Assembly (NCBI RefSeq): GCF_964355755.1
Contig: NC_092675.1
Coordinates: forward strand, 2,847,812 to 2,911,811
DNA: 64,000 nt
From: Antedon mediterranea
Taxonomy: Eukaryota; Animalia; Echinodermata
Direction: 5' to 3'
The notes beneath the pieces are model-generated. The model saw nothing but the letters and a program-made list of their open reading frames with translations, was not told the DNA's origin and made no database searches. Both the position numbers and the translations under genes were made by a program. Of this stretch, positions 9,101 to 58,178 are shown one piece after another (within the stretch, counting starts at the first letter, position 1; every line of letters starts with the position of its first letter).

Positions 9101-10691
9101 TATTAATGTATATTATATTTTTTTTGTTTTTCTGATGCCGCACACCATATTTGGAACATCCAGGCATCACCTTTATAAGAACTGAATTGGAGGAATCTTG
9201 GTGACTCATACTTACATTGAGCTCAAATGCTGCAACTGCTATTCCACTCGCAGCACCAGACCCAGCAAGACCTATAAAGTGTTCACTACCAATATTGCTT
9301 GCGAACAGTGACGCACCCACCTACATTAGCAACATTTCATTGGTTAGAATATCTAATTACATCATGAAATAAACTCTCTATATTTGTTGATTATACCATA
9401 TATCCTCTGGTATAACCCCACCCTCCTAGAACATGAAATTGTGCCAACTTACAGTAGGGGGGTGTGACTATACCCGGGGAATCCCTGATTCAGGAAAAAC
9501 ATGATTTGTTAAGCATTACTTTCTAGTCTACATCCAGACAAAAATCAATACTGGGACTATATCCAAATTCCTGTTTGTGAAATCAGAAATAAAGTAGGGG
9601 TGGGATTAGACCAGAAGTGGGATTATACCACTCTATATGGTAGAGGTAACAGACTATAAACGTTTAGAACAGATGTGTGTAAACAAATAATAAAACAAAT
9701 ATTGTTTTGTACAGTATTTGTGGAAATGAAGAGAATATGTTAATTTGTCGGATCCGAGTCATTAAATAGAACAGTCAATCCTTCATTCAACAAAAAATAA
9801 GATAGTACAATGTTTTGATGTCATCATCATTAGGACAGCTTAATCAGCTACAGTATGCATCATCTGCTATCAAGGACTTACTGTCAACTAGCTTACACCA
9901 ATATACATAATTATTATACTATTGCTAAACATATGTCCAAATTGTCCATGTACACAGAATCATTACTGTACTTACTGGTAGCCAGAACATAGAATTTCCA
10001 GCCAAAAAGTATTCTTTTGATGTAGATCTTGATGAGTGAAATAATGACTGAAATGAAAAAAAATACAATTTTGTCTAGAAAACCAGCAAGAATAGAATCT
10101 GGTTTGATGATAACAATCATTTTGACTGTTTTGAACCCTCATCAAAAGACAAATTTAAATAAATGTTTGTTAAACTTTATGGTAACTATACCCTTCATTG
10201 ATATAAAAATTCCAATTGATATTCTGAGTGAGGCCATAGTGAACTAAAATATCTCTATGGTGAGGCCTTTTAAAATTGATAAACAATATTATACAATATA
10301 TTATATTAACATATATACAAGATTATTAAATTCATTTTTACACTGCTCAGTGTTACCCTATTTAAAGTTCATTTTGTTTATTGATAAATATAAAATAAAA
10401 TGGATTTATAAAGCTGAGTGATCAACCACCAGCAAATCTGAGTGTATGTTTAAACGAATTGGCTGGCTAATTAAGAGCATGTCCGGCCCTAAACCTTTTG
10501 TATTGTATTGACTTGTACTAAAAGGGGCTAGGCCTAAGTTGTATTGTCGGTCGGTGTCCTTGGTTGACCTACTTTAACCCTATCCGAATAAAAACCAGTT
10601 AGTAAATACTTACTGCTATTCCCACCGACAGGACACATGCAAAATATATTACAAGAACAATAATATCTTCTGTAGTTACTGAGGTAGCCAT
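3165..10691 (-). CDS. SLC5A3: SLC5-family sodium/myo-inositol (sugar) cotransporter, SMIT1/SLC5A3-like, 14 exons, about 662 aa
   Basis: Exons (minus): 10614-10691, 9976-10047, 9216-9320, 8549-8713, 7984-8089, 7466-7546, 6882-7090, 6607-6742, 6147-6254, 5518-5668, 5038-5206, 4365-4577, 3869-4043, 3165-3385. Total 1989 nt, phases consistent. SSS motifs: [30 protein letters not shown] (the SEHFIG form is SMIT1-like), [42 protein letters not shown]. Exact paralog assignment within SLC5A is tentative. Confidence 0.92.
3440..3680 (-). mobile_element. tRNA-derived SINE, DeuSINE-like, partial copy
   Basis: Reverse complement matches the core of the copies at 4750 and 13272 (TCTCGGATAAGGACTATAAACCGTAGGTCCAGTGTACAC...GCACTTTAAAG...AGTAGGGGAGTTACCCC). 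Confidence 0.75.
4750..4970 (+). mobile_element. tRNA-derived SINE, DeuSINE-like, 5'-truncated and internally deleted copy
   Basis: B box GGGTTCGAGGC, shared core, and the same 3' end TTACCCAGTATAAATAAATAACAAATTCAAAA as the copy at 13272. Confidence 0.8.
5982..6124. mobile_element. PIF/Harbinger-type MITE, family 1
   Basis: TIR AGCTCTCTCTACACTATCAAACT / AGTTTGATAGTGTAGACAAGGCT, flanked by TTA on both sides. Related copies at 7122, 8158, 8378 and about 31875. Confidence 0.8.
7122..7310. mobile_element. Harbinger-type MITE family 1 copy with expanded internal 21-bp repeat
   Basis: Same TIRs as the copy at 5982; tandem CATATTTGGGCATACCACTAC units inside. Confidence 0.75.
8158..8490. mobile_element. 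Two Harbinger-type MITE family 1 copies (8158-8277 truncated; 8378-8490)
   Basis: TIR motif GTCTACACTATCAA and internal GTGATGTGCCCAAATATGG shared with the copy at 5982. Confidence 0.7.
9394..9642. mobile_element. Probable Tc1/pogo-type MITE remnant
   Basis: Termini TACCATATA...TATATGGTA; subterminal GGTATAACCCCAC / GTGGGATTATACC inverted motifs. Confidence 0.5.
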
Positions 10692-19873: not shown

Positions 19874-35145
<15,272 letters not shown>

Positions 35146-39199: not shown

Positions 39200-39848
39200 T
39201 AAGTGTAAAAATGCGTAGGAAGGTATATCACCTACATTATGAGTCTATCACCTCCTATTGAGGATAGATGTAAAACTACACCAGTTCCGTTTCACGAAAT
39301 GTACGACCCTTCCTTGTTAAACGAATTGAAATATTTACAACAAATGTGATCCACGAAAAAGCACTTGATCGCGCTCTACCGATTGGAAAAGAAACGGACA
39401 CAAATACTATGATCTAACGTCTAGGTCTCGTACTTCCATGTCGAAATCACAATCTCAAATTGGTGAAGCAACGGATAATTATTAATGATTGTGATTTTTT
39501 CAAGAAACGAAAAGCAAACTCGTGAACAGAACAGTAACTCGAGAATGTAATAAAGCGAGTAACAATATAAAACACACATATCGGAAACAAGTGGTCTCAC
39601 TTAGAAACCTATTTTATTTATTCTTTGATCTGGAATGATCCATTTATATCATATTTAAAGAACTGTGTAATATGTTTCATGACAAAACAATAAAAGAGGG
39701 CGACAACTAATAATTATACTCACTGAAAACTACTACCTAAAACTATACATTTCTAAAATATTTTTACTTATTGCTGTTTCTAACACAGGTATGATATAAG
39801 AGAAAAGGCTATTTGTTTGAGTTGACTATATAACAAAAGTCGAATTTG

Positions 39849-40898
39849 TCACCGTATGTTTATTTTCTTAAAGTTGGATGTGTTTTCCGTTACTATTTTG
39901 TCTTGAACGGTGACATTAACGTTAGCACTGAATGTAATATCGTCCTCTGTAACAACACACATTATATTTAAACCATCATTTAAACCAGCTAATTTCAGTT
40001 TATTAATCTTCAAAACATTTTCAGAGATCAGTTTAAAATGATCATCATCTAATTCCTTAATATCAACACCATCAATGGTCCACGAGAATAAAAAGTCATC
40101 AGTCAGAAAACCAGTCGCAATGCAAGTAAACAGCACAATTTCGCCATGAATAACAGAATTCCCAGTTTGTGTGATGGTGACGTCAGGTGACGCAAGCGGT
40201 ACGTAACTGCAGCCAATAACCATGTTACCTGATGCGTTAGTTTGTGCAACGCATGCAAATGTGTCGCCGTAATGTTCTGGTGAGAGTATTAATTTGTATC
40301 CAACAGAGTTTTTTCTGGTCTTCAGCAGTTGAGCCTCCGAGATGGTTTCCTCGTCTAACACATCAGGATGACGTATCTTAACCCAAGACACAAAGAGTGA
40401 CTTTGATAGAGCTGACGAATTCCAGGAACATCTTAGATTAGCTTTCTTACCGAGTTGAGGTCTTCCATGTTTTGGTTGCTTCGTTCTCAACGAGCAATTA
40501 GGTTTTTGTAAAACAATTAAAGAATATCCGTCGTAAAATATATCTTCCATCCTGGGACCACCATCAGATAACGCACAAACATAATTCGTAGTATCAGCAG
40601 ACGAGATTTTAATATCTAAATTATAAGACATGTTTTCTCGATCGTCTGTTATGTTGTATTTTTCTTTTGCTTGATTTCGAACAACGATTTCCGAACCATT
40701 GCTGATAGTATTTGTATTAGTAGTGGTTTTAACTGTAAACCAAGTTGGCGTTAGACGTGAATACGGTTGTTTAAAGTAAGTGCAATTTAACGTCACTACA
40801 TCTTCTTCAATAACTAATAACTCTACAGATCTCTGACATCCAAAAACAACACAAAAACAACAAGTTAACAGGACCGCTATAAAAACAACGCGGACCAT
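39849..40898 (-). CDS. IgSF cluster gene 1: signal peptide plus V-C-C Ig domains, no TM (predicted secreted), 349 aa
   Basis: Single-exon ORF from ATG 40898 (MVRVVFIAVLLTCCFCVVFG-CQRS). Ig Cys/Trp pattern three times: VTLNC..W..YVCAL; NLRCSW..VSWV..FACVA; LFTC..FSWTIDG..IMCVV. Confidence 0.85.
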   Translation of the reverse strand: MVRVVFIAVLLTCCFCVVFGCQRSVELLVIEEDVVTLNCTYFKQPYSRLTPTWFTVKTTTNTNTISNGSEIVVRNQAKEKYNITDDRENMSYNLDIKISSADTTNYVCALSDGGPRMEDIFYDGYSLIVLQKPNCSLRTKQPKHGRPQLGKKANLRCSWNSSALSKSLFVSWVKIRHPDVLDEETISEAQLLKTRKNSVGYKLILSPEHYGDTFACVAQTNASGNMVIGCSYVPLASPDVTITQTGNSVIHGEIVLFTCIATGFLTDDFLFSWTIDGVDIKELDDDHFKLISENVLKINKLKLAGLNDGLNIMCVVTEDDITFSANVNVTVQDKIVTENTSNFKKINIR

Positions 40899-41522
40899 GA
40901 TTTGTATTTTCCGTCGTTTCTGCAAAGCAATTGCATTCGACAGAAAAACGTTTTAAGTGTTACTACTTGGACGTATGAAAAGCATCTGGCTTGTAACAGC
41001 CTATAACAAAGCAGTGATTGCGCAGGAAATATCATCTTGTTGGTACCAGTTGGTACCAACAGAAAAGTAATAAAGACAACAGGAAACAATGCAACAAGGA
41101 TTTTACAAGACAAATTGCTTTATATGACACAATCATAGGTCTCTGGTAGGCCTATTACTTTTTTTCTTTTCAACATTATATTTTAATCATTATCGTAGCA
41201 AATGTTGCATATCATTTTGATAAAGGTGTAGAGGACGCTGTTTTTACTCTTCTAAACAGTATTTTTACATGAATAAATACAGTCGACTTATTTTTAAACA
41301 AAAGGATGTTATTGTAATCAATATGTATTTAGACATATAGGTAGATTATCGATTTATTGATATAATTCGATTCAAATGGTTATTAACAATCTCTTTTCAA
41401 AAATGTGAATGCACTGTTCATATTATAATTAACATTCTATAATAAATTCAAAGAAACATATATCTGTTTATTTTTCCAATTTGGTTATTTCAGTTTTAGT
41501 ATGATATAAGTGACAGTAATCC

Positions 41523-42542
41523 TTATATTTGTACAGTACCTATTTCTTTATCAGTAACATTTATTTTGGCACTGAATATAATATCGTCCTCTGTAACAAG
41601 ACACTTTATATCCAAACCATCAGCACCTAATTTAAGTTTATTAATCTTCAAAACATTTGTAGAAATCAGTTTAAAGTTATCGTCATCTACCTCCATAATA
41701 TCAACACTATCAATGGTCCACGAGAACACAAAGTCATCAGTCAGAAAACCAGTCGCATTGCACGTAAACAGCACAGCTTCGCCAATAACAGAATCTTCTG
41801 TTTGTGCAATGGTGACGTCAGGTGACGCAAGCGGTACGTAACTGCAGCCAATAACCATATTACTTGATGCGTTAGTTTGCGCAACGCACGCGAAGGCATC
41901 GCCGTAATGTTCTGGTGAGAGTGTTAATTTGTATCCAACAGAGTTTGTTCTGGTCTTCAGCACTTGAGCCACCGAGATGGTTTCCTCATCTAACACATTA
42001 GGATGACGTATCTTAACCCAAGACACAAAGAGTGGCTTTGATAGAGCTGACGCATTCCAAGAACATCTTAGATTAGCTTTCTTACTCAGTTGAGGTCTTC
42101 CACGTCTTGGTTGCTTCGTTTTCAACGAGCAGTTGGGTTTTTGTAAAACAGTTAAAGAATACCCGTCATAAAATAAAAAGTCTTCCATCCTGGGACCACC
42201 ATCAGATAACGCACAAACATAATACGTAGAATCAGCAGACGAGATTTTAATATCTAAATTATAAGACATGTTTTCTCGATCGTCTGTTATGTTGAATTTG
42301 TTTTTTGCTTGATTTCGAAAAACGATTTCCGAACCATTGCTGATAGTATTTGTAGCCATATCGGTATCGATATCGATTGTAATCCAAGTTGGCGTTAGAC
42401 GTGAATACGGTTGTTTAAAGTAAGTGCAATTCAACGTGACTATATCGTCTTCAATAACTAATAGCTCTACAGATCTCTGACATCCAAAAACAACACAAAA
42501 AGAACAAGTTAACAGCACCGCTGTAAAACCATTGCGGACCAT
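41523..42542 (-). CDS. IgSF cluster gene 2: signal peptide plus V-C-C Ig domains, no TM (predicted secreted), 339 aa
   Basis: Single-exon ORF; close paralog of gene 1, including the upstream flank. Confidence 0.85.
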   Translation of the reverse strand: MVRNGFTAVLLTCSFCVVFGCQRSVELLVIEDDIVTLNCTYFKQPYSRLTPTWITIDIDTDMATNTISNGSEIVFRNQAKNKFNITDDRENMSYNLDIKISSADSTYYVCALSDGGPRMEDFLFYDGYSLTVLQKPNCSLKTKQPRRGRPQLSKKANLRCSWNASALSKPLFVSWVKIRHPNVLDEETISVAQVLKTRTNSVGYKLTLSPEHYGDAFACVAQTNASSNMVIGCSYVPLASPDVTIAQTEDSVIGEAVLFTCNATGFLTDDFVFSWTIDSVDIMEVDDDNFKLISTNVLKINKLKLGADGLDIKCLVTEDDIIFSAKINVTDKEIGTVQI

Positions 42543-42870
42543 GATTGGTATTTTCTGTGTTTCTGTAAAGCAATTGCATTCGACAGAAAACGTTTTAAGT
42601 GTTACTACTTGGACGTATGAAAAGCATCTGGCAGTGATTGCGCAGGAAATATCATCTTGTTGGTACCAGTTGGTACCAACAGAAAAGTAATAAAGACTAT
42701 AGGAAACAATGCAACAGGGATTTTAAAAGACAAATTGCTTTATATGACACAATCATAGGTCTCTGGTAGGCCTACTACGTTTTTTCTTTTCAACATTATA
42801 TTTTAAAGCTGTAGAGGACGCTGTTCTCACTCTTATAAACGGTATTATCTATTGTATAAATAAAGTAGAC

Positions 42871-42955
42871 CTACAGCTCACTATGTCGGTCGGTTGGTCG
42901 GTCGGTAAACACTTACTTGAGCACGCAATTGCAGCCATGTATATGGCCTTGTTTT
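42871..42955 (-). mobile_element. HINE-like element copy
   Basis: Reverse complement of most of 39093-39180; absent from the paralogous flank at about 41285. Confidence 0.65.
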
Positions 42956-43149
42956 AAAACAAAAGGATGTTACTGTAAACAATATGTCCTTAGATATATA
43001 GATAGTTCGAATGGTTATTAACAATCTCTTTTCAAAAATGTGAATGCACTGGTTATATTATAATTAACATTCTATAATAAATTCAAAGATATATCTGTTT
43101 ATTTTTCCAATTTGGTTATTTCAGTTTTAGTATGATATAGGAGTAATCC

Positions 43150-43520
43150 TTATACTGTATTTGCTCTCCAATTTTCCGAGTGTACAGTAGCTTTATCAGT
43201 AACATACATTTTGGTACTGAATACAATATTGTCCTCTTTAACAAAACACATTATATTTAAACCACTATCAACTATTTTCTGTTTATCAATCTTCAAAATA
43301 TTGTCAGAGATCAGTTTAAAATGATCATCATCTAATTCTAATAATAATATTAACCCCATCAATGGTCCAAGAGAACACAACGTCATCAGTCAGAACGCCA
43401 GTCGAATTGCACGTAAATAGTACGATTTTATCAATAACAGAACCTTCGGTTTTTGTGATGGTGACGTCAGGTGACGTAAGCGGTACGTAACTGCAGCCAA
43501 TAACCATATTACTTGATGCG
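43150..43520 (-). pseudogene. IgSF cluster locus 3: 5'-truncated fragment (end of domain 2 plus domain 3) with a frameshift
   Basis: ASSNMVIGCSYVPLTSPDVTI..LFTCNSTG..FSWTIDGVNIII, frameshift near 43340, then ELDDDHFKLISDNILKID..IMCFVKED. The upstream part is replaced by a minisatellite. Confidence 0.85.
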
Positions 43521-43543
43521 AAAACAATGATTTAAAAATGCTA

Positions 43544-43846
43544 CACGTTATTACAAAGTCCAACACGTTATTACAAATAATGTGACGCATTATTTCAAAA
43601 TGCGACGCGTTATTACAAAGTGCTATACGTTATTGCAAAGTGCTATACGTTATTACAAAGTGCTATACGTTATTACAAAGTGCTATACGTTATTACAAAG
43701 TGCTATACGTTATTACAAAATTCGACGCGTTATTACAAAATTCGAGGCGTTATTACAAAATTCGAGGCGTTATTACAAAATTCGAGACGTTATTACAGAA
43801 TTCGACGCGTTATTACAGAATTCGACGCGTTAATACAAAGTGCGAC
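43544..43846. repeat. 20-bp minisatellite (CGTTATTACAAAGTGCTATA / CGTTATTACAAAATTCGAGG variants)
   Basis: About 15 tandem units, with two sequence variants in separate blocks. Confidence 0.93.
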
Positions 43847-44690
43847 TGGTGCTATTTTTCGGATTATAAATGTAGGCCTACTAAAGGTTAGGTAAAACAT
43901 GCAGAAATTGTATTCCCTATTAAGGTACAAATTATTATAATAATGAATATCCATACATCCAGTGAATATATCCTACCTCGTCGTCCTATTACAAACCTCG
44001 GACTATTTCTTACACCATCTGTGGTACAAATTGTATACAATAGCAGGTGCGTATATACCACCAATACCGACATCGTACATTAAATGGCAAGTAAGACGAT
44101 AGGTAATATACGTTATTTCTACTAATCTCTAGTACTTTGTATGTTGTGCATATTATATCTAGAGACAGAAAACTCCGTTACGTGACGCATAGTGCACCGA
44201 GGTCACTCGTAGCAATAATACACAATAATAGTACTATTATGGTACATAGGAAATCCTTACTCTACCTAACAGGAAACTAAATCTAATCAAAAGATTACAG
44301 ACATACCTTAAACGTTTTTACGCCGACTTCTAGACTCTCCATGTACAAGTACTAAGTTGCAGGCACTGGTCGTCGCTAAATAGTAACTCGGAAGTAGAGA
44401 CATCACTGCCGATGCGAGAGCATATAAACGTTAATACGGGCCGTGAAAACGAAACGAAGTTGTACTTGTAACGTGTTGTACGTTTAGATGTCAAAGGCCA
44501 CGATTTTAAGTCAGCGAAGCGGATAGGATGTGTTGTCGGGTCGGGACAGCAAATGATAACATATTCAAAGTTTTAGCTAATATCTTTATTACTTCAATTA
44601 CAATGAGTATTACCAACTTTTTATAAAAACGTTAATTTGAATAAACTGTTTGTTAAATTCTATATACAGTACATGTATAGTAACTTGAAA

Positions 44691-44892
44691 AACGTTGATA
44701 TAAGTTTTCGGTACACCACGTATGTTAGTTCTGAAAAGAACTGTTGAGTTTCTCGACGGTTCGATCAATATGCTTTGATCGTCCTCAAGTGTGAGAAGGC
44801 ATTGTCACTCATGAGGACGATCAAAGCAGCTACGTGGTGTACCGTAAACTTTATATCAACATTTGATTTCGCCATGCAAACCTTCAAACAAT
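44691..44892. mobile_element. Second Penelope-like inverted-repeat element with hammerhead-like cores
   Basis: Same arms and tail as the copy at 20290; inner TGCTTTGATCGTCCTCA / TGAGGACGATCAAAGCA inverted pair. Confidence 0.65.
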
Positions 44893-44974
44893 AACATTAT
44901 ATAACTGTTTCAAATATGATTATTATTCAAATATTTAAATCATCGTTATAGTAGACGTTTTAACTAATGTTGGG

Positions 44975-46015
44975 CTATATAACGGTAATATAGTATTCGT
45001 TTTCTAACTGATTGTGCGTATCTGTTTCTTGGTCAGTAGCATATACCTGGGCACTAAATGTAACATTGTCCTCTTTAACATGACACATTATATCTAATCC
45101 ATTATCAACTAATTTCAGTTTATCAATCTTCAAAAGATCGTTAGAGATCAGTTTAAAATGATCGTCATCTAATTCCATAACATCAACGCCATCAATGGTC
45201 CACGAGAACACAAAGTCATTGGTCAGAAAGCCAGTCGCATCGCATGTAAACAGCACATGTTTGCCAGTAATAGAATCTTTTATTTGTGTGATGGTGACGT
45301 CAGGTGACGCAAGCGGTACGTAACTGCAGCCAATGAGCGTGTTGTTTGAGGTTTCAGTTCGCGCAACGCACGCGAAGGCATCCCCGTAATGTTCTGGTGA
45401 GAGTGTTAATTTGCATCCAACAGAGTTTGTTCTTCTTTTCAGGACTTGAGCGTCCATGACTGTCTCCTCATTTACCACACCAGGATGATTTATCTGAACC
45501 CATGACACCGAAAGTGGATTCTGCTTCGACAAAGCTGACGAATCCCAAGAACATCTTAGATTAACCTTCTTACTGCGTTTTCCACGTCTGTTTCGTTTCG
45601 CTTCCATGGAGCAATTTGGTTTTGGGAAAGCAGTTACGGTATAACCATAATATGGAATGTGGTTAGCTATATTACCATCATTTCCTAAGGCACAAACAGC
45701 AAAATCATCTGGATGTACAGAATCAGGCGTGACTTTCAAATCGTACGTCATGTTGTTTCGGTCATCGGTTATGCTGTATTTATCTTTATTTTCAACCAAA
45801 ACGTCAGAGCCATTAGTGATCGTTTTGCCTTGTCCCATACCATGAATTATAAACCAAGTTGGCCATTGATCATCAAGTAGTTTATCGTAGTCACATGATA
45901 ATGTAACTACGTCGTCTTCAAAGGCTAACAGCTCGAAGCTACCTCGTTGACATCCAGAGACAACGCAAGAAGAATAGCTTAACAGTGCCGCTATAAAAAC
46001 AACCCGGGACATCAT
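44975..46015 (-). CDS. IgSF cluster gene 4: signal peptide plus V-C-C Ig domains, no TM (predicted secreted), 346 aa
   Basis: Single-exon ORF from ATG 46015 (MMSRVVFIAALLSYSSCVVSG-CQRG); same three-domain Cys/Trp pattern as genes 1 and 2. Confidence 0.85.
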   Translation of the reverse strand: MMSRVVFIAALLSYSSCVVSGCQRGSFELLAFEDDVVTLSCDYDKLLDDQWPTWFIIHGMGQGKTITNGSDVLVENKDKYSITDDRNNMTYDLKVTPDSVHPDDFAVCALGNDGNIANHIPYYGYTVTAFPKPNCSMEAKRNRRGKRSKKVNLRCSWDSSALSKQNPLSVSWVQINHPGVVNEETVMDAQVLKRRTNSVGCKLTLSPEHYGDAFACVARTETSNNTLIGCSYVPLASPDVTITQIKDSITGKHVLFTCDATGFLTNDFVFSWTIDGVDVMELDDDHFKLISNDLLKIDKLKLVDNGLDIMCHVKEDNVTFSAQVYATDQETDTHNQLENEYYITVI

Positions 46016-46735
46016 GATGGTAGTTTGTGTGAAAGCAGAAGATTCTGAAGTATTCCACAACCTTTTGATTCAGAGTTATTGGGAGAGCTATCTTACCTTG
46101 ACAAATACAAGCGAAGGACTGGCTTCAATAAATATTTTAGACGTATACACATCCTCCTAAGCGGTGTGTTTAGTTGTTAAACTGCTTTGTAAAGAAAGAA
46201 ATATATCGCGCAGGAAATATCGTACTTGTTGGTATCAGTTGGTACCAACAAAATAGTGTTTTACAACCTTCACATGACAATACTACAGGAAGCAATGTAC
46301 CAGGGATAGTACAAAATAAGAAGCATTAGACTCTTTCTTTACAGCTTTGTTATCATTACTGATTCTTATCCTATTAACTATAACTAAAGTACTATACAGC
46401 AGTATAGTAGTAGCACCCCATACACATACAATAAATGTATCTATTTAGGAAGCATACTCATGTTTGGCCTTATGACAGTCTGTGGTCATAATTCTTAAGG
46501 AATTAACATACATGGTGACACAAAATCGACTACTGTATATGGAGAAATAAAGCCTTATTTGGCGTAGCAAAACATATTTTTACATGAAGAAAAAGTTAAG
46601 TATTTCTAAAGAAATGTGCAAATAGTAACGATTTCATTTTTCAATGTTGTTTCTTGTGAAACCATTGGAACAGCTACTTGATTTACATACTGTCTGATCA
46701 GTTGGCATTTGGTTGAGCAGATTTTTGTCTGGTTT

Positions 46736-49700
46736 CTAATTATATAAACGTTTTTTTACAATTACTAGACTAACAATTACTGCACATAACAAAACAAAAC
46801 CTGCAATAGAAATACCAATAATGAGAGAAAGATCTGGTTTCTGTACGTCTTCAAAATCAACAGAAAATTGAGCACCGAATGTTGCATTGCCCTCTGTTAC
46901 AAGACACGTTATATCTGAACCAGTATCAACTAATTCCAATCTATCAATCTGCAAAACATTGTCAGAAATCAGCTTGAAATGATCGTCATCTAATTCCAAA
47001 ACATTAACGTCATCAATGGTCCAAGAGAACACAAAGTCATTGGTCAGAAAGTCAGTCGCATCGCATGTAAACAGGACAATTTCTCCAATAACCAAATCCC
47101 CGGTTTGTGCGATGGTGATGTCAGGTGACGTAAGTGGTACGTAACTACAGCCAATGAGGGTGTTGTTTGACGTTTCAGTTCGCGCAACGCAAGCAAAGGT
47201 ATCACCGTAATGTTCTGACGAGAGTGTTAATTGGTATTCAGAAGCGTCTGTTGCCGTGTTCAGTTTTGGAACTTGCCGTATTGTTTTTTCATCTAACACA
47301 TCAGCACAGCACAGCACAGCTCTATTGCGATATTTCCGATCACCTACCTGTTTTTTCTATATCTACCTTAACATACAAAAATACTCAAGCAGTCAGTAGA
47401 CCTCCAAATAAACCTTTTAGGAAAATTAATGAAAATAACATCAAACAATTTAAACGAGAGCTTAGCGTAATAACATGGAACGATGTGAACTTATTGCAAG
47501 AACCTAATCAAGCTTATAATACTTTTGAAACTAAATTAAAACTTTTATATAATAAACATTTTCCAATGACTACGCAAAGTAAAAAAAACACAAAATTAAA
47601 ACCTTGGATGTCAAATGGTCTGTTGCAATCTACTAAATATAAACACAAGTTATATGCTAAATACCTAAATAATCCTACCAATCATAATAAAATAAAATAC
47701 ACTAAATTCCGTAATACCTTAAATTCACTTATTAAACGTGTTAAAACCGAATACTATCAAAACAGATTCACTCAATGTCAACATGATATTAAAGGTACTT
47801 GGCGCGTAATTAACTCCTTGATTAAAAGGTCTCCGAATTTGAATACGAAAGTTGTTCTAACAGGCAATAATGGTGAATCCATTGAAGACCCGTCTCAAAT
47901 CGCAAATGAATTCAATAAGTTTTTTGTCGAAATTGGACCAACTCTTTCAAAAAATTGCCAACCGATCAATCTTATTTTAAAACGTATTTGCCCTTACCTA
48001 CTTTAAACTCTTTATTTATGTGTCCAGTGTCTGATACAGAAATTATAGATATTGTCAAGTGTTTTAAAACTAATAAAGCGCAAGGACTTGATGAATTCAG
48101 TCCAAAAGTTATTAAACAATCAATTTCCCTTTTGGTTAAACCTCTATGTCACATATTTAATCTGTCTTTAACAAAAGGAGTTTTTCCAAATAAATTGAAA
48201 TTGGCAAGAGTTACTCCCATCTTTAAAGCAGGAAAAAAGGACACTTTATCTAATTACCGACCGATCTCAGTCCTTTCGCTATTTTCTAAAATATTAGAAA
48301 GAATTATCTATAATAGAACCTATGCCTTTATGGAAAAAAATAATATTCTATGCAATAAGCAATTTGGATTTCGCAAACATTTTGATACCGCAATGGCCTT
48401 AATTGATTTGTCCAATGAAATAATAGATGCATTTGAAAATGATGAGTTTGCAATTGGTGTTTTTGTCGATCTATCGAAAGCATTCGATACCATTAACCAT
48501 CCCATTCTTCTTTCAAAACTGTATCACTATGGTATTCGCGGTGTTCCTCTCAATTTATTTAAGAGCTATTTATCCAACCGCTACCAATGTACCAAGTTTT
48601 GTGATTCCCAATCTGACTATTTGCCTATTACCTGTGGAGTACCACAAGGTTCATTACTAGGTCCTCTTCTGTTTCTTTTATATGTGAATGATATTTACAA
48701 TTCGTCAGTATCTTTATCTTACTTTTTATATGCAGATGACACAACACTAATCTGTAAAAATCGACACTTAGAGTCGTTATTTAACACTGTAAATACAAGT
48801 TTAATTAATGTATCCGAATGGTTTCTGGCAAACAGCCTTTCTGTAAATCTAAAAAAGTGCAGCTATGTTTTGTTTAGAAGTAGTACGATGCCGATTAAAT
48901 TAGGTCCATTGCAAATTAAACTAAATGGTTCTGTTCTCCCCATGGTCAATCATGCAAAATTTTTGGATGTATCCATTGATAGTCGTCTGACATGGAAACC
49001 CCATGTTATTGAGACTGAAAACAAAATCTCAAAAAATATTGGTATAATTTGTAGACTGGCATCTTTTCTTCCACATCATATTCTCCGAACACTCTACTGC
49101 TCCCTTGTTTTGCCATATCTTTTATATTGCAATATCGTTTGGTGTAACACATTCCCATCTAATTTAAATAAACTTCAAATACTACAAAAGAAAATCATTC
49201 GAATAATTTCGAATGTTTCACCTAGAACTAGTACAGATCCTTTATTTCGTTCTCTCAAATTATTAAAATTAACAGATATTAATATTTTCCAACAATGTTT
49301 ATTTATTTACAAAAGCCAAAATGCTCTTCTTCCATCTCATTTACGCGATATGTTTTCTCCCAATTATGAATTTCACGGCTATTCCACAAGAATCCTCAAT
49401 AACCTTCATATTCCTAAACATAAAAAGACTTCTTTTCAACATAATATTAGATTTACTGGACCCAAGATATGGAACTCACTTCCTAACAAAATTAGGCCTA
49501 CAACTTCTGCAAACAAACATAGCTTCGTCTTTAACACTAAACAATATCTAATACAAAAGTAAATTAATTAACTAGTTATATTCTAGGTTTCAGTTTTTTA
49601 TTGTTTTCATATTCCGTTATGGTAATTACTTTATTCCTATATACCATTTATTATTATTTACTAATTTGATTTTAGTTACTTTTTGTTTTGTTCAGGCACT

Positions 49701-50404
49701 TTCAACACAAGCTTTTGCTTTTTAGAAATTGTGCCTCCTTCATAATATTGTTTTATTCATGTTAAAGATGAGAAAAAAAAAATTGTATTGTTTTAACTAT
49801 CTTTCTTGTTGTCATGAATTTTGTGTATTATATTTTTTTGTATATTATGAAGGAAATAAATGTTATTATGATGATGATGATGATGAGGATGACGTATCTG
49901 AACCCAAGACACAAAGAGTGTGTTTTGCAAAGCTGATGAATCCCAAGAACATCTTAGATCAACAATTTCACCGCGTTGTGATGTACCACGTCTAGGTTGT
50001 TTCACTTTCAACGAACAGTTCGGTTTTTGTAAAACAGTCAAAGTGTACAAAAACGCATGCTTGGTTGTATCGATAACATCCGATAACGCACATGCGTAAA
50101 TTGATAGACCTGTAGAATCGGTTTTAACATCCAAATTGTACGCCATGTTTTCTCGGTCATCAGTTAAGTCGTATTTATTTTGATCAGCCAAGATTTTAGA
50201 TCCATTAGTGATCATTTCTTCTATGCCGTCTTCAGTAGCTCTAGCCCAATAAGCTACCGTTAAATTTAGTTTCTCAGTGTAGCTACAATTTAACGTGACT
50301 ACATCTCCTACGATGGCTAACAGGTCTCCGGATCGTTGGCATCCAAAAACTACACAAGCATAATAAGATGACAGCATCGCAATCAAAACAACACGGGACA
50401 TCAT
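46736..50404 (-). pseudogene. IgSF cluster gene 5: membrane form split by a LINE insertion
   Basis: Joining 50404-49888 (MMSRVVLIAML..WVQIRH) to 47304-46736 (PDVLDEKTI..TM LIIGISIAGFVLLCAVIVSLVIV-KKRLYN*) restores an in-frame 361-aa ORF matching the paralogs' IRHPDVLDE. Confidence 0.9.
47305..49887 (+). mobile_element. 5'-truncated non-LTR retrotransposon (CR1/L2/Crack group), ORF2 from the end of the endonuclease through reverse transcriptase
   Basis: ISDHLPVF (APE C-terminus), KPWMS, YRPISVLSLFSKILE, QFGFR, DLSKAFDTINH, GVPQGSLLGPLLFLLYVND, YADDTT. One frameshift near 47950, stop at 49562, 3' UTR ending AAATAAA..(ATG)n; no clear TSD. Confidence 0.93.
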
Positions 50405-50978
50405 AATTCTTGGTTGTTATAAATACAAGTTTACTTCAAGTTAGCAAGACTCCTATTCATTTACTACATAAGTAGTTCCGCACCCTTTTCCGGATATTAT
50501 TATCGTCAGTGTTAATCCTATCCTAAATTTACTGGTTCTCGGATACAATTCATGGGTTCAATATCATACATTATAGGCCTATCTATATCATGATAGATTA
50601 CCATTAAAAGGATGTTCTTCCTGTCTCGATACAGATCTGTAAGTACATTATGCTTTGACTTAAACAAGTGGCACATTTTGGTACAGTACTTCCTTGTGGC
50701 GCCATTTTAGATTTGTCTACAGTATTTGCTCACTTAGACTGAGTGGTCGCTTGAAGAACATGAACAAAAGTTAAAACATTTATTAGATTTATGGTTTAAA
50801 ACATTTTTGGTTATTTAATTATATACATTGAATAATCAAAATGAGTATATAACAAAACTTATTTTAACAAAGCAAGAATTTGCCAAAATGTCAGAATATA
50901 GTAGGCCTACATTCTCTCGTGCTATTCTTTTGTGAACAAAAAATATGCATATAACCGTTTCATTTTCTACAGCGATTT

Positions 50979-52802
50979 TTATTCTAGTACAACCATTGGA
51001 ATATCTGCTTGATATGCATAAAAATCCTTGGATTTGTCCACAGTGTTTACTTTCTTAGACTGGGTGCTCACTTGAAGAGATTCATATTGTGATGACAGAC
51101 GTGGACCTAAATCAGTGTAATCATCATTATTAGAAGAAGATTCTTTATTTGCCGATGCTTTCGGCACACTACTTCCTTGTGACGCCCATTCCGATTTGTA
51201 AACAGTGTTTGCTTTCTCAGACTGGGTGCTCGCTCGAAGAGATTCATATTGTGATGAAAGACGTGGACCTAAATCAGTGTAATCATCATTATTTGAAGAA
51301 GATTCTTTATTTACCGATGCTTTTGACACAGTACTACCTTGTGGCGCCCTGTTAGATTTGTCCCCAGTATTTTCTTTCTCAGACATAGTGCTTGTTTCAA
51401 CAGATTCATATTGTGGACCTACATTAGTGTAACCATCATTCGAAGAAGATTCTTTATTTGCCGATGCTTTTGGCACAGTGCTTCCTTGTGGCAACTTGTT
51501 AGATTTGTCCCCAGTATTTTCTTTCTTAGACATAGTGCTTGTTTCAACAGATTCATATTGAGGTCCCACATCAGTGTAATCATGATTCGAAGAAGGTTCT
51601 TTATTTGCCGATGCTTTTGGTACAGTACTACCTTGTGGCGCCCTTTCAGATTTTCCAGACTGTAAAGTTTCGTAGGCCGATGGAGGGTGAGGATATTGCA
51701 ACGCTAAATAAGAATTATCCCCGTCTGAAGTACTATTTTGAGCGTTTGAATTATCATTAGTTGTAGAATAATATAAGGTTTTGACTAGTCCAAAAATGAC
51801 AGCACAGAGGCCTACAACATCAACAACTAAAACAGAAATACCGACAGAGATATTTTCAGAGTTTGGTTTCTGTACGTCTTGGACAATAAATTGAGCACTA
51901 AATGTAATATCGTCTTCTGTAACAAGACACATTATATCCAAACCAGCTGATTTCAGTTTATTAATCTTTAAAACGTTGTCAGAGATCAGTTTAAAGTGAT
52001 CGTCATCTACCTCCATAATATCAACACCACCAATGGTCCACGAGAACACAACGTCATCAGTCAGAAACCCAGTCGCCTTGCAGGTAAGATGCAACATTTC
52101 GCCAACAACAGCATCTTCTGTTTGTGCGATGCTGACGTCAGGTGACGTAAGTGGTACATAACTGCAGCCAATGATCGTGTTGTTTGACGTTTTTGTTCGC
52201 GCAACGCACGCGAAGGTATCACCGTAATGTTCTGGTGAGAGTGTTAATTTGTAGCCAGTAGAGTCTTTTTTGGTCTTCAGCAAGTCAGCTTCCATTATCG
52301 ATTCCTCATTCAATACATCAGGATGACGTATCTTAACCCACGACACAGAGAGTGGCTTTGGCAAAGCTGACGAATTCCATGAACATCTTAGATTGATTTT
52401 CTTGCTACGTTTTCCACGTTTGTTTCGTTTTGCTTCCAACGAGCAAGTAGGTTTCTGTAGAGCAGTTATCGAATATCTATTAGCAATAGAAATTACTTTG
52501 TCACCATCCGATAACACACAGATGTAAAACTCGGGTAGATCCATAGAATCCGTTTTAATTTCTAAATTGTATGTCATGTTTTCTCGATCGTCAATTAAGT
52601 TGTACTTATTCTGATTACTAACCACAATTTTAGAACCATTTGTGATGTAAAATCCATCATTGGTTTCGAATTTAAACCAACGTGGCGTTAGACTTGAATT
52701 ACCGTTGGTACATTTTAACGTAACCACATCTTGTACAATGGTCACGATATCAATTCGTTGACATCCGAGAAAGCAAGCCATGAAAGCTAAACTAGACATC
52801 AT
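50979..52802 (-). CDS. IgSF cluster gene 6: V-C-C Ig receptor with TM and a long tail of four tandem tyrosine modules, 607 aa
   Basis: ATG 52802; TM ISVGISVLVVDVVGLCAVIFGLV. Tail: YLAL-x8-YETL, two YTxV-x3-YESV, two YTDL-x7-YESL. The signal peptide is unusually short. Confidence 0.88.
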   Translation of the reverse strand: MMSSLAFMACFLGCQRIDIVTIVQDVVTLKCTNGNSSLTPRWFKFETNDGFYITNGSKIVVSNQNKYNLIDDRENMTYNLEIKTDSMDLPEFYICVLSDGDKVISIANRYSITALQKPTCSLEAKRNKRGKRSKKINLRCSWNSSALPKPLSVSWVKIRHPDVLNEESIMEADLLKTKKDSTGYKLTLSPEHYGDTFACVARTKTSNNTIIGCSYVPLTSPDVSIAQTEDAVVGEMLHLTCKATGFLTDDVVFSWTIGGVDIMEVDDDHFKLISDNVLKINKLKSAGLDIMCLVTEDDITFSAQFIVQDVQKPNSENISVGISVLVVDVVGLCAVIFGLVKTLYYSTTNDNSNAQNSTSDGDNSYLALQYPHPPSAYETLQSGKSERAPQGSTVPKASANKEPSSNHDYTDVGPQYESVETSTMSKKENTGDKSNKLPQGSTVPKASANKESSSNDGYTNVGPQYESVETSTMSEKENTGDKSNRAPQGSTVSKASVNKESSSNNDDYTDLGPRLSSQYESLRASTQSEKANTVYKSEWASQGSSVPKASANKESSSNNDDYTDLGPRLSSQYESLQVSTQSKKVNTVDKSKDFYAYQADIPMVVLE

Positions 52803-54024
52803 GCTTTTCAGTTGTTGTGAAGGCAAATCCTGTTCGAATTAGCACGATTCCAATGTTAACGGTACAGACGTAATCCAAACACGAAATGTCCACATAAAGG
52901 CTACAAGCTCAGAAACAAAACAAATTATAATCGATTTAATAGATGTATTGATACAACAGTTATCTCTCTATTCCTATTAAACTACACACAAAATGTGCAG
53001 TTGGTTCCTTTGCAGATTCCTATTAAAATATGTTTGGCTTACTATAACTGACGCAAACATCTCAACTTTTGGATTGCTGGTTTCAACTTCTTACATATTA
53101 TAATAAACCGATTCGCACATTAAAATAAGGAAAAGAAACTTAACTAAAAACGAGTCGGAAACATTATCATATCATGTTCTGGGTACTTGGCTACCATCTT
53201 GAACACTCAAAGTCATTCAACAATTCCTGTTATTGTATAAATAATTGTGTTTTTTTACGATTACCGTACCTTGTATTTTTTTCACGTAGAAAAGTAACAT
53301 TACAATATAATATTGAAAATGCAAGAATATTATTTAAGAAGACTTGTTCACATGGAGGTTGTCAGTAGGTTAATCAAGAATTTAAAAAGCGGGAATAAAT
53401 AGGTCACAACCTCGATACATTAGGTTGATCATGCTCTATTTACATTGAAACCTCAACGTTTAGTAAGTACCGGTAATAAATGTAAGTGTTATAATAGATA
53501 TTATATTCTAAACACTTGAGTTAACTTTAAGACAAGGTTATTCAAAACGATATATTCAAATTACGATAATAAGAAATAATTGCGACATAAACCGTTACAT
53601 GAGTATTGTTTGAATAATTATAGCTTTAATTAATGACGTACTTTCACCCGAAAATCTAAACATGTTTACTTAAATGCGGGATGTAGCAAAATATACCATA
53701 CATAAAACCAAAGATATACACATTGTAAACAAAATGGCCAAAAAAAAAGCAGACTGGATCCCTAAATGGACCAGAACCTGGCCAAAATACAGTAGTTAAT
53801 AAATCAAAACATCTCTATTCATTACCTCAATATCAACGTCATATACTAAACACGCCATTTTCTAAGTATACAGATACAAAAGCAATTTAAAATATACCTG
53901 CACAAGTATTTTATTATCAAATAGTTATCAAAATAATGGCCAATTCATAGATATAGGCTTACGGTAAATTGTATATCTCAACCTCAATTTAAATAATATG
54001 TAAATTCTAGTAAGCATAGGTTAA

Positions 54025-56528
54025 AGATGTATTGTCCCCCAAAAAATGAAAAATAAAGATGAAAAAAATCAAATTTTGAATAGACCGTTTAGTAGTTAAC
54101 ATAAAGTTATTCACTTCCACCGAAAAAAAATCCGAAAAAAATATTGATTTCGCTTATAAAAAAATCAAAATAAGTTTACCATTTTTTCGAACTCATCGGC
54201 TCAGAAATTAGGCCGGTAGAGCTAACTCATACATATGCATGATATGTTAATGAGCATCCACACAGCAGAGATCTGATCTAACAATGGACGATGCACGTTG
54301 TATGTACAACACCACCACCAGAGATCGACGCGATTCGACTGTGGGTTTCCCTGGCCTGATCGTATAAATATGTAAAGCTGAGCTGTTAATTTGTCGGTAA
54401 GTAGGCCTAGACGGTTATTTTAATAATAATAATATATATAACGCAATAATAACAGGAAGGTAAATTAATTAACTTAACCTGGGATTTTTTCAGTTCAGGG
54501 CTAGGCCTAGAATAATTAATACATGCTGCTGCATATTACTAGTACGCCGGCGTTACTAGTAGGCTAGTAGCAAGCAGACTGTGACAATCGGGTCCCTGCA
54601 GAAGATGCCCAGCTAGGCCCTATCTATACATTGTACTCTTCATAGACTGGCCTAGGCTATATGCCATCAATCTTAGCTACATTCCGAAAATACAGCCAGC
54701 TTGCTGTACCATATATATTTACAGTTGAAGCTTGTTTAACTAATTTTTATGATAAAAATAAAACAAACATTTTTCAGGGAAAATGGTTGCAATACAATAC
54801 AAGCCTGAAATTGAGAACCTTCCAGCAGCACTGTACAAGTAGACAGAGGGGAAAAGTCAGCTTAGCCATTTTACAACACAAACAAATGTTCTCTGTACTG
54901 TAGTAAGTCAAATATTTATTTTCTCTTTTTATAAGTTATAACATTATAAGTAATGTGTTTTAATTACCATAGAAAGGTAGTATACTTATTTGACTATGTC
55001 AAAGTAAGCAATTTCACTAGCCCAATTTTGCACTAAATATGCATGATCTATTTTTTCCAGATTTTCATACTTTGCTTTTACGTTGAGCTGATGAAGACTG
55101 GAACAGAGGTCACCCAAAGACAACAATGATAGACTCGGTATTGGAATATGATTGGATATTGCAGGAAAAATATTTCTGACTCTCCTGCTGCATTCGGCCA
55201 ATATGTTCTTGTCCAGCTTGTAAAATATTGTATCATTTTTTTTGTATTATATGTACAGTATATTATTTTGTAAACATAACATTCAATAAATAAAAAAAAA
55301 ACTACTACAACAGTACACAGGATAAATTCTTCAAATTTACTTACACTTCATAATTTTACTGTAAATATTACAGTGCAAAAGGAGTTAATAAAATATATAT
55401 ATACAGTATATCTGATTGAATTCCTGTATTGTTTTTTGTGTCAATTTTAATTATCAATGTGTTGATTGTGGCAGTAATTACGACAGCTATAGTCTTCTAA
55501 GATCGCTCACATCCATTACAAAGTGTCATTTTAATAGTAAGAAACGTTTCAATAAATTGTGAATGTTGCCACTGTACGATACATTTTATGTTTCTCACTA
55601 CTTGCTCTTATTGTTCAATCAATCAACCTAAAAAAAAAAAGGAATTTGTGTCAAAATATCTGCATAAAATGTTTATTTGCAGAATGTTAATTTGAACCTA
55701 TTGCATTTGATACAGAAAATATTTTAAAAATATTGCATCAGTAAAACATCCAAAACAATATTTAGATTTTTTTTTTTTTAAATTTTCACTGCCGAATAGA
55801 TAGTCGAAATCTTTAAAAATTAAACCAATTCATCATGATTAAAACAAAAATACATCCCTTCTGGTGGTGTTCTACTGTAGCCCTAGCTAGCAGTGTACTG
55901 CCTAGGCCTACTACACTCTCTACTTCTAGAGACAGAAGTAGGCAGCAGTTAGGCTACTCGAGACTGTCAGTGCTAGTAGTAGTAGTAGTTACTAGTAGGC
56001 CTAGTAGTAGACTAAGAAAACTAGTAGTACAGTAGCAGCAAATTCGGGCCTAGGCCTAGCTAGGCCTCTCCTGTTAGCGAAACAAAAACTCACCTAAATG
56101 AATAAGATTCAACATCAAAGTTACCAACTGTAATTCTAACTTAGCATTCTGCTAGCTATAGTTTTCTTGTTTTCTTCAAGATTCGTCTCGCATCACTACT
56201 CGACTCTCTCCCGCACGCATACATTGCTATCGTTGTTGGCTAGGCTGTTGATTTGGAAAGCATCATCATCCACACGATGTATCCATACAATATGAATATT
56301 TATGAGCTAACTCAGGTCAAGGGTTAAATTAAACCGGAACACATTTGTCTTCCAGACAAATAGCTTCCGGTTGGTTAATTTTTGCATTAAATTGCGATTT
56401 TCCCGTGTAAAAAATTATTTTTTTCAATCCAAATTGAGGTCAAAGTGAATAACTTTTATGTGCAATTAAAATGGCCTATTCAACAAAAATATTTAAAAAA
56501 AAATTTTTTTCAGGGGGACAATACATCT
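54025..56528. mobile_element. 2.5-kb non-autonomous DNA transposon with TTAA TSD (Kolobok-like)
   Basis: TTAA(54021-24)-AGATGTATTGTCCCCC...GGGGGACAATACATCT-TTAA(56529-32); subterminal AAAGTTATTCACTT / AAGTGAATAACTTT. Purine-start termini with TTAA fit Kolobok rather than piggyBac (CCY). Lone termini of the same type at about 33826 and 36855. Confidence 0.8.
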
Positions 56529-58178
56529 TTAAAGTACATTTGCATAAACTGTGTCTCTTTCTAAAACGATTTTAATTCCAGTTACTGGTTCTGCATAATC
56601 ATACACATGTGCATAGTCATTGGGAACAGCTGTTTGATTTGCATAATGAGACTCCTCGGATTTGTCCACAGTATTTGCTTTCTTAGACTGGATGCTCACG
56701 TGAAGAGATGCATATTGTGATGAAAGACGTGGACCTAAATCGGTGTAATCATCATTCGAAGAGGATCCTTTATTTGTCGATTTTTTTGGTGCAGTAGTCT
56801 TTCTTCCTTGTGGCGCTCTTTTAGATGTGTCCCCAGCATTTGCTTTCTTAGACCGAGTGCTTGTTTCAACAGATTCATATTGTGGGCCTAAATCAGTGTA
56901 ATCATCATTCGAAGAAGGTTCTTCATTTGGCGCCCTTTCAGATTTTCCAGACTGTAAAGTTTCGTAGGCCGATGGAGAGTGAGGATATTGCAACGCTAAA
57001 TATGAATCATCACCATCTGAAGTACTATTGTGAGCGTTTTCTTTTGCCGTATTCTGTGTGTTGGTATGAGTACCCTCCTTTATTTTTCTAGAATTACAAA
57101 AACGTTTGATAACAATTACAAGCCCAACAATGGCAGCACATATCACAACAAAACCTGCAACGGAAATACCAGTAACTACAAATATATTTTCAGAGTTTGG
57201 TTCCGGCATGTCTTGGACAGCAACTGAAAATTGAGCACTGAATGTGATATCATCCTCTGTAACAAGACACTTTATATCCAAACCATCATCAGCTAATTCA
57301 AGTGCATTAATCTTTAAAACATTGTCAGAAATCAGTTTAAAATGATTATCCTCTAATTCCATAATGCTAACACCATCTATGGTCCATGAGAACCCAAAGT
57401 CATTGGTTAGAAAGCCAGACACATTGCACGTAAATAACGCAATTTCACCAATAACAGAATCCCCGTTTTGTGTAATGGTAATGTCGGGTGGCGTAAGTGC
57501 TACGTAACTGCAGCCAATTATCGTGTTGTTTGAGGTTTCTGTTCGCGCAACGCACGCGAAGGTATCACCGTAATGTTCTGGTGAGAGTGTTAGTTGGTAT
57601 TGAGAAGTGTTTGTGGCAGTGTTCAGTTCTGGAACTTCCATTATCGTTTCTTCATCTAACACATCAGGATGATGTATCTGAACCCACGACACCAAGAGTG
57701 GCTTTGACAAAGCCGACGCATTCCAAGAACATCTTAGATCAATTTTCTTACCGCGTTGCGATGTACGACGTCTCGGTTGTTTCGCTTTTAACGAGCATTT
57801 TGGTTTTGGTAAAACAGTTAAAGAATATCCATAATACAATTCGGTTGCACTCTCACCATCCGATAATGAACAGACATAACGCTTAGGTAGATCCGTAGAA
57901 TCAGTTTTAATTTCTAAATTGTATGTCATCTCTTCTCGATCATCTGTTAAGCTGTATTTAGTTTGATCAGCAACGACTTGAGAGCCGTTAGTGATTGTTC
58001 CCGATTCACTGGCAATTGTTACCCACGATAGCGTCAAACTAGAATTAAATTTCTCATTGTAGCTACAATTTAACGTGACTACATCTTCAACGATGGCTAA
58101 CAGCTCACCAGATCTTTGGCACCCAAAAGCAACATAAGAAACACAGGTTAACAATATAAACACAACACGGGATGCCAT
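56529..58178 (-). CDS. IgSF cluster gene 7: V-C-C Ig receptor with TM and an ITAM/ITSM-type tail, 549 aa
   Basis: Signal MASRVVFILLTCVSYVAFG-CQRS; TM IFVVTGISVAGFVVICAAIVGLVIVI-KR. Tail: YLAL-x8-YETL, YTDL-x3-YESV, YTDL-x7-YASL, YANQ, YAHVYDY, terminal TVYANVL. Confidence 0.9.
   Translation of the reverse strand: MASRVVFILLTCVSYVAFGCQRSGELLAIVEDVVTLNCSYNEKFNSSLTLSWVTIASESGTITNGSQVVADQTKYSLTDDREEMTYNLEIKTDSTDLPKRYVCSLSDGESATELYYGYSLTVLPKPKCSLKAKQPRRRTSQRGKKIDLRCSWNASALSKPLLVSWVQIHHPDVLDEETIMEVPELNTATNTSQYQLTLSPEHYGDTFACVARTETSNNTIIGCSYVALTPPDITITQNGDSVIGEIALFTCNVSGFLTNDFGFSWTIDGVSIMELEDNHFKLISDNVLKINALELADDGLDIKCLVTEDDITFSAQFSVAVQDMPEPNSENIFVVTGISVAGFVVICAAIVGLVIVIKRFCNSRKIKEGTHTNTQNTAKENAHNSTSDGDDSYLALQYPHSPSAYETLQSGKSERAPNEEPSSNDDYTDLGPQYESVETSTRSKKANAGDTSKRAPQGRKTTAPKKSTNKGSSSNDDYTDLGPRLSSQYASLHVSIQSKKANTVDKSEESHYANQTAVPNDYAHVYDYAEPVTGIKIVLERDTVYANVL

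Follow-up and report, generated by a model that had tools for sequence, protein, structure and literature searches.

Within a 64,000-nt window of the Antedon mediterranea genome (contig NC_092675.1, the whole stretch of DNA analyzed), we investigated a tandem cluster of seven related immunoglobulin (Ig) loci, numbered G1 to G7 from left to right. Six-frame translation placed all seven on the minus strand at 39849-58178, with NR2E3 on one side and DAPK1 on the other, in agreement with the preliminary description of this DNA. NR2E3 was identified by its best PDB match and DAPK1 by its Death and COR domains and its homologs; DAPK1 is 56% identical to its best homolog, which clusters with a Patiria miniata protein, and about 35% identical to vertebrate proteins. 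The coding regions of G1, G2, G4, G6 and G7 are each a single uninterrupted open reading frame (ORF) from start to stop, whereas the window's other genes have short exons. The previously proposed composition also held: G1, G2 and G4 lack a transmembrane segment (TM), G6 and G7 combine a TM with a tyrosine-rich tail, G5 is split by a long interspersed nuclear element (LINE), and G3 is a fragment without signal peptide, GCQR motif and V domain. With G5, the TM-type genes number three instead of the two counted earlier. G2 is 85% identical to G1 in ectodomain amino acids and 89% in nucleotides over 1.3 kb.

Of the shared architecture proposed for the loci, the GCQR motif was present in all six non-fragment genes and the three Ig domains (D1 to D3) were recovered by Pfam and AlphaFold2, while the signal peptides are predictions from N-terminal hydropathy (1.6-2.7) only. 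Pfam matches were V-set, C2-set_2 and Ig_3/I-set; D2 of G7 scored above the cut-off for C2-set_2, and C1-set scores for D3 stayed under the cut-off. D2 appears to be a CD80-like C2-set domain with an extra cysteine pair, not a C1 domain, and D3 resembles Ig models and Ig structures. The ectodomain structure prediction suggested earlier gave, from an alignment of 18 rows, a model of three beta domains (predicted local distance difference test, 81.6) with generic Ig fold matches; an initial model from 7 rows (37) was discarded. The top internal 19-residue hydropathy was 1.0-1.6 in G1, G2 and G4 vs. 2.7-3.0 in the TM genes, and a search downstream of G1, G2 and G4 for a homolog of the TM segment found none. 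In G5 a 2-nt frameshift ends the tail five residues past the TM, and what is left of the ancestral tail follows. The GCQR cysteine, early after the signal peptide, gives D1 an odd number of cysteines, and a further cysteine is kept in all three TMs; either could form interchain disulfides.

ITAMs (immunoreceptor tyrosine-based activation motifs) were scored in the cytoplasmic tails as YxxL/I-x6-9-YxxL/I, matching the consensus applied to the Hydractinia Alr proteins (PMC9546547). Two YxxL-x7/8-YxxL pairs were found in G7 and three in G6, with an acidic residue ahead of each. These counts were reached in 0 of 20,000 shuffles per tail, so the spacing is far above chance and the signaling tails proposed earlier are borne out. 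The second half of every pair also fits the consensus of the inhibitory motif (ITIM). The G6 tail is built of tandem 147-162-bp units, and its extra pairs are therefore not independent origins. The label "paired" fared less well. In paired receptors a basic TM residue couples to DAP12 or FcR-gamma; in contrast, no TM of G5, G6 or G7 contains one (K/R/H), that of G6 holding an Asp. The tails of G6 and G7, moreover, share both ancestry and type of motif, which leaves a classical activating/inhibitory pair unsupported. The V domains of G6 and G7 are 55% identical, short of the near-identical ectodomains of classical paired receptors. Instead, the set would hold ITAM-type receptors in G6 and G7, a membrane form without a tail in G5, and TM-less forms in G1, G2 and G4.

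Table 1. Features of the Ig cluster; positions are those of the window.
Feature	Position	Strand	Description
G1	39849..40898	-	Predicted secreted, 349 aa; signal peptide, V, C2 (4 Cys), C/I; no TM
G2	41523..42542	-	Predicted secreted paralog, 339 aa; no TM; recent duplicate of G1
G3	43150..43519	-	Pseudogene, 5'-truncated and frameshifted; end of D2 and D3; G2-type 3' flank
20-bp tandem repeat	43535..43846	no strand	15.5 copies; sits where G3 is truncated
G4	44975..46015	-	Predicted secreted paralog, 346 aa; no TM; most divergent V domain
G5 3' half	46736..47304	-	End of D2, D3, TM, 5-residue tail
LINE in D2 of G5	47305..49887	+	Reverse transcriptase (RT) ORF 47919-49559; GAT-repeat 3' end
G5 5' half	49888..50404	-	Signal peptide, V domain, start of D2
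Degenerate tail-repeat remnant	50670..50757	-	Downstream of G6 stop
G6	50979..52802	-	607 aa; signal peptide, three Ig, TM (with Asp), 266-aa Tyr-rich tail
G6 ITAM-spaced pairs	51663-51710, 51237-51281, 51075-51119	-	
Terminal inverted repeat (TIR) element	54021..56532	no strand	TTAA-flanked; right TTAA overlaps G7 stop codon
G7	56529..58178	-	549 aa; signal peptide, three Ig, TM, 191-aa Tyr-rich tail
G7 ITAM-spaced pairs	56955-57002, 56703-56747	-	
G7 motif of immunoreceptor tyrosine-based switch (ITSM) type	56535-56552	-	C-terminal

The TM-less genes G1, G2 and G4 are under purifying selection (dN/dS about 0.42), which speaks for selective retention of these predicted soluble copies. Four tested pairs gave dN/dS of 0.39-0.43; the TM-less genes have open frames and a ratio of 0.42-0.43 in all three of their pairs, with 0.42 (confidence interval, CI, 0.26-0.67) for G1-G2, and a neutral G1-like ORF was still open in only 0.1-1.5% of 5,000 simulations. 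G1 and G2 group together with 100% support in D1 and D2. A decoy role of the soluble forms is at most hypothetical: their V domains are just 38-56% identical to those of the membrane forms, and any sharing of ligands is conjectural. The claim of birth-and-death evolution found marks in the fragment G3, the LINE in G5, the frameshifted G5 tail and the tail remnant. Dead and split copies, together with a LINE-free G5 in another sample (X1, below), show recent turnover.

The G7 stretch is present in nine sequencing runs from two organisms and three studies, five of which we compared, as contigs only; two samples of the same organism were seen, and alleles below 85% identity would not map (85-88% floor). 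X1 contigs span parts of G1, G4-G5, G6 and G7 plus intergenic DNA, and one of them (39662-40195) passes the G1 stop codon without a joint. Another links 49899 with 47304 across 11 letters, as long as an empty site should be; hence a LINE-free G5 copy exists, with one extra base in its 5' part that makes the status of the frame uncertain. Removal of the LINE by splicing was ruled out, as the junction lacks GT-AG ends on either strand. Related organism B differs from the window at 18 of 695 nt at G7 and at 115 of 1,661 nt across G6 and upstream DNA. No run with the G7 stretch is recorded as RNA. X1 has two canonical splice joints in the TIR element, one per strand (54395-54777, 55625-56092), which are absent from X2, X6 and X7; this suggests that X1 is spliced RNA, although that nature is only guessed. 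Expression of the cluster is hinted at, and no more than that, as X1 contigs also cover intergenic DNA. An X1 contig joining a G1-type V domain to a G2-type signal region and a mosaic in X2 that switches inside a 35-nt identical stretch are both likely assembly chimeras and not hybrid alleles, since the two mosaics differ. Low or absent X1 cover at G2 and 43978-44631 and the high summed depth of organism B at G7 were not used as evidence.

The cluster had been described as no named family; instead, sequence and cysteine pattern place it in the echinoderm KirrelL/Kirrel2L-type three-Ig family. Word-index homolog searches returned nothing with the G7 ectodomain at E≤1e-3 and nothing with a 7-row alignment at E≤10, and the exact G1, G4, G6 and G7 sequences were absent from the protein collection searched. 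An ectodomain profile run against 1.84 billion representatives gave 41 matches at E≤1e-3, 2 at 1e-10 and 0 at 1e-30, the two strongest being tick and nemertean multi-Ig proteins (7 and 5 matched stretches). When the 41 were aligned singly, thirteen covered at least 250 columns. Names were looked up for 20 of the 41; the look-up took in all but one of the 13 long-aligning relatives, giving a name for ten (nine echinoderm, one hemichordate) and none for two. They include a Holothuria "Kin of IRRE-like 1" (P0067) and Acanthaster Kirrel2L (P0062, matched by eye to the supplement of PMC8903837); "CADM2-like" names on some matches are automatic labels. Eleven relatives, at 20-24% identity, keep all eight Ig cysteines including the extra D2 pair, and C19, C84, C109, C131, C190, C204, C232 and C285 are nearly invariant in the 18-row alignment. 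This eight-cysteine feature was defined from our analysis and not from a published description; the four-cysteine D2 was judged on the alignment, a regular expression having missed G7 and several aligned relatives. Profile-profile comparison (hhalign) gave 99.7% and E 1.9e-26 over 275 columns, for relatives that this profile had itself selected. A stingray SIRP-beta-like protein (202 columns) scores like the weaker family members, so the margin of the assignment, which draws on full-length colinearity, cysteine pattern and gene structure, appears modest. The cluster profile also matches T-cell receptor chains weakly (E about 3e-4), and an atlas search turned up nothing beyond clusters of generic Ig, C2-set and nephrin-like type.

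A tree built from 18 ectodomains, without G3 and G5 and with no nectin placed, united the five window genes in one clade (95/92) on a long stem of 1.15. With the lack of any relative at E≤1e-30, this upholds the proposed lineage-specific expansion. One-to-one orthology with a known adhesion family had been named earlier among the findings that would speak against such a family; with KirrelL and Kirrel2L it was not seen, as the clade stands apart from P0067 and P0062 at the low identity given above. By these comparisons, we regard the cluster as a fast-evolving offshoot of the KirrelL-like family and not as orthologs. The sister of the clade, with weak support (82/93), is a pair of unnamed proteins (P0041/P0069) that end in an ITSM-type motif, as G7 does. 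The unnamed relative P0050 has a tyrosine pair with the 8-residue spacing of the membrane-proximal pair of G6 and G7, and two Anneissia japonica relatives (P0044, P0063), recorded with longest contigs of equal length (652,672), may lie in another tandem cluster of the family.

Like KirrelL, Kirrel2L, IgTM and Hypp1164, the window genes have a signal peptide-V-C2-C/I-TM layout, with the TM in G5, G6 and G7, colinear over about 275 columns, and the eight Ig cysteines with the extra D2 pair. They share the intron-free coding region with kirrelL, the only member compared in this respect, which is intronless in all echinoderms examined (PMC8903837). Unlike that family, they lie in tandem with soluble, tailless and dead members, carry ITAM-spaced repeats in the tails (such a pair occurs in 1 of the 13 relatives), lack in the V domain the invariant Asp before the F-strand Tyr-x-Cys and have the extra cysteine of GCQR.

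Among the paralogs, the V domain is 52% identical vs. 72% for D2 and 69% for D3, which makes V about twice as diverged as the C domains, and V identity is lowest in loop windows (0.07-0.29). Taken with the greater silent-site divergence of the V domain (below), this pattern fits gene conversion among the C domains, and alignment error in the V loops may contribute. Direct tests were weak. In no domain did approximately unbiased tests tell three topologies apart. By a longest-run test, p<0.05 was reached for 6 of 10 pairs, of which only G6-G7 survives Bonferroni correction, and differences in rate between domains confound it.

We consider it likely that the cluster is a small lineage-specific cell-surface recognition system. 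The explanation we favor, at roughly even confidence, is a set of recognition receptors of adhesion-family descent that signal through ITAMs and have soluble partners, arisen by tandem expansion of intron-free three-Ig KirrelL-like genes. G6 and G7 would bind ligand through their divergent V domains and signal through the ITAM-spaced tail repeats; binders of secreted type would come from G1, G2 and G4, and a membrane form lacking a tail from G5. By analogy with established ITAM biology, ligand would cluster the receptor, a Src-family kinase would phosphorylate the YxxL-x7/8-YxxL pairs, and a Syk/Shark-type tandem-SH2 kinase would dock and set off a cell response such as phagocytosis or encapsulation; at the end of G7, the ITSM-type motif could recruit an SHP-type phosphatase, and soluble and tailless copies may serve as opsonins or buffers. 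The Src, Syk/Shark and SHP chain is established knowledge (summarized in PMC9546547), and we infer secretion, phosphorylation, partners, ligand class and cell type for the window genes. Anatomy, motif enrichment, purifying selection, family origin and copy turnover, in turn, are direct results. In favor of this recognition system we count the ITAM-spaced pairs and their rarity among relatives, the maintained frames of the TM-less genes, the low V identity and the recent turnover of copies. The lack of close relatives among 1.84 billion representatives would also speak for it, set against the good conservation across echinoderms that is reported for KirrelL (PMC8903837). Further, and unlikely in our estimate, one echinoderm lineage may have turned an intron-free cell-fusion/adhesion family to use as an antigen-receptor-like system that needs no rearrangement, converging on the logic of B-cell receptor plus antibody; its parts would be varied V domains on conversion-homogenized constant domains, membrane forms with ITAM arrays and secreted counterparts.

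The vertebrate SIRP, LILR, CD300 and NITR families are clustered paralogs with signaling, short-tailed and soluble forms, SIRP having the arrangement V-C1-C1. The window genes likewise have a V and two C domains, SIRP-alpha and SIRP-gamma appear in the Foldseek list, and the stingray SIRP-beta-like protein is among the 41 profile matches. Unlike the SIRP type, they have a four-cysteine D2 that appears to be C2-set, ITAMs in their own tail and a single coding exon. IgV-IgC1 transmembrane receptors of the sea urchin, reportedly described by Hibino and by Rast in 2006, have two domains vs. three here (compared by description, not by sequence). A review characterizes sea urchin V-type Ig receptors as weakly like Ig and T-cell receptors (PMC3308324), and another describes oyster CgIgIT2 as an Ig receptor with its own ITAM that recognizes microbes (PMC11999971); CgIgIT2 has five Ig domains and one ITAM and resembles the window genes by description. 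Hydractinia Alr genes are clustered Ig-superfamily genes with a V-set first domain, ITAM/ITIM tails, secreted forms and pseudogenes (PMC9546547), all of which, by description and with no Alr protein aligned, has a counterpart here in the clustering, V-set first domain, ITAM tails, TM-less forms and pseudogenes. Alr genes differ in having one exon per domain and a fibronectin type III-like (Fn3-like) region, where the window genes have a single coding exon and an Ig-type D3, and in scale, with models of 18 bona fide genes, 11 putative ones and 12 pseudogenes spread over megabases and highly polymorphic Alr1/2. The closest systems in logic are thus Hydractinia Alr and the vertebrate SIRP-type clusters, and in ancestry the KirrelL-like proteins.

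Several results weigh against a recognition system of immune type. The family is small within the window, and the three ITAM pairs of G6 derive from just two distinct units. ITIM/ITSM-type motifs occur in 9 of the 13 relatives (one or two perhaps in or before the TM), so tyrosine motifs as such are not distinctive and would by themselves be no marker of immunity; the ITAM repeats are distinctive. The silent sites of D1 are also more diverged (proportion of silent differences, pS, 0.58 vs. 0.34; CI of the difference 0.14-0.35), and the divergence of the V domain therefore need not be adaptive. Site models, in our own implementation with five or six sequences and low power, gave no sign of positive selection: for D1, M2a vs. 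M1a had p 1.0 (six genes) and 0.84 (five genes), and D2 (five genes) and D3 (six genes, single start, p 0.96) were likewise null. The p of 0.012 obtained for D3 with five genes was not accepted, being one of five data sets with recombination not modeled. Purifying selection acts on every domain (dN/dS 0.38-0.46). X1 contigs differ from the window at only 0/449, 0/568, 1/534 and 20/2,000 nt. The closest characterized relatives are developmental: KirrelL is required for skeletogenic cell fusion (PMC8903837) and IgTM regulates skeletal branching (PMC6768484). Of the signals that an immune arms race would be expected to leave, neither positive selection in the V domain (by the site models) nor marked polymorphism (as far as contigs of two samples of the same organism show) was found.

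This ancestry gives weight to a somewhat unlikely alternative, a diversified adhesion or fusion family acting in skeletogenesis or regeneration, whose TM forms would adhere to one another or to a partner carried by the opposing cell while the tyrosine repeats dock cytoskeletal adaptors and the secreted forms tune adhesion. The hhalign match and the purifying selection in every domain suit it, as do the Foldseek leaders, nectin-1 and other adhesion ectodomains, and the best single-sequence PDB match, Irregular chiasm C-roughest (E 8.4e-6). These fold matches, however, are generic: Foldseek TM-scores are 0.25-0.43 (nectin about 0.3, at 17% identity), SIRP and antibodies stand in the same list, and none of the fold searches, with a best Z of 12.7, gave a match that stands out. 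The low identity to KirrelL-type proteins, the long stem, the loss of family motifs and the rarity of repeated ITAM-spaced units among relatives also argue against it, and a conserved single-copy effector would not be expected to show pseudogenes and recent duplicates.

Homophilic binding, which an adhesion ancestry would suit, would also underlie an Alr-like allorecognition locus, where polymorphic V domains would recognize self alleles and rejection would be driven by the ITAM tails. The parts shared with Alr (PMC9546547) favor this idea, but we hold it to be improbable: contigs of two same-organism samples hardly differ from the window over the parts that map, under the 85% mapping limit given above, D1 lacks positive selection, and Alr domains are separate exons with an Fn3-like third region. 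Mostly neutral copy-number churn, with one or two working receptors amid decaying copies and TM-less genes that yield no functional soluble protein, is equally doubtful. G3 is dead and G5 broken in this haplotype, the TM-less ORFs run into unrelated flank a few codons past D3, and conversion from working copies could mimic low dN/dS. Yet the G1-G2 interval excludes 1 for a pair grouped with full support, frames, signal peptides and all eight cysteines are intact in 3/3 TM-less genes, and neutral ORFs seldom survived in the simulations.

Echinoderm recognition is described, in the reviews consulted, through Toll-like and NOD-like receptors, scavenger receptors and SpTransformer, and the terms "ITAM" and "Syk" are absent from the main text of a 2026 review of sea cucumber immunity. 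In the literature searched, which leaves most subscription papers outside, we found no paper on an echinoderm ITAM Ig gene cluster in coelomocytes and no published description of this cluster, the allorecognition literature included. No new principle is involved: cnidarians and vertebrates have Ig receptors in clusters, with ITAMs and soluble forms. If the recognition explanation is true, the cluster offers a compact set of single-exon, easily cloned Ig receptors with ITAMs from a deuterostome that is not a chordate, and with it a direct test of the route from adhesion Ig protein to immune receptor. If adhesion or fusion is the true function, it documents rapid diversification of a fusion-gene family.

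Beyond the cluster, the window holds intron-rich minus-strand neighbors at about 3100-25500, read from ORF fragments, with NR2E3 at about 21060-25520. From motifs, we take the gene at about 3170-9320 to be an SLC5-type sodium/solute symporter and that at about 11420-16460 to be UTP15-like. Two long tandem-repeat arrays (1-2430 and 11945-13250) were seen as repetitive ORFs. The LINE in G5 looks young: its RT ORF of 547 aa is nearly intact (RVT_1, E 6.6e-34), it has a GAT-repeat tail and a 2-nt junction overlap, and no clear target duplication was seen at the G5 junction. Near-identical LINE contigs occur in X2 at high depth, suggesting that its family was active not long ago. The TIR element is 2.5 kb long with ends that begin AG, and is presumably Kolobok-like; ends related to its own also occur near 33826-33943 and 36854.

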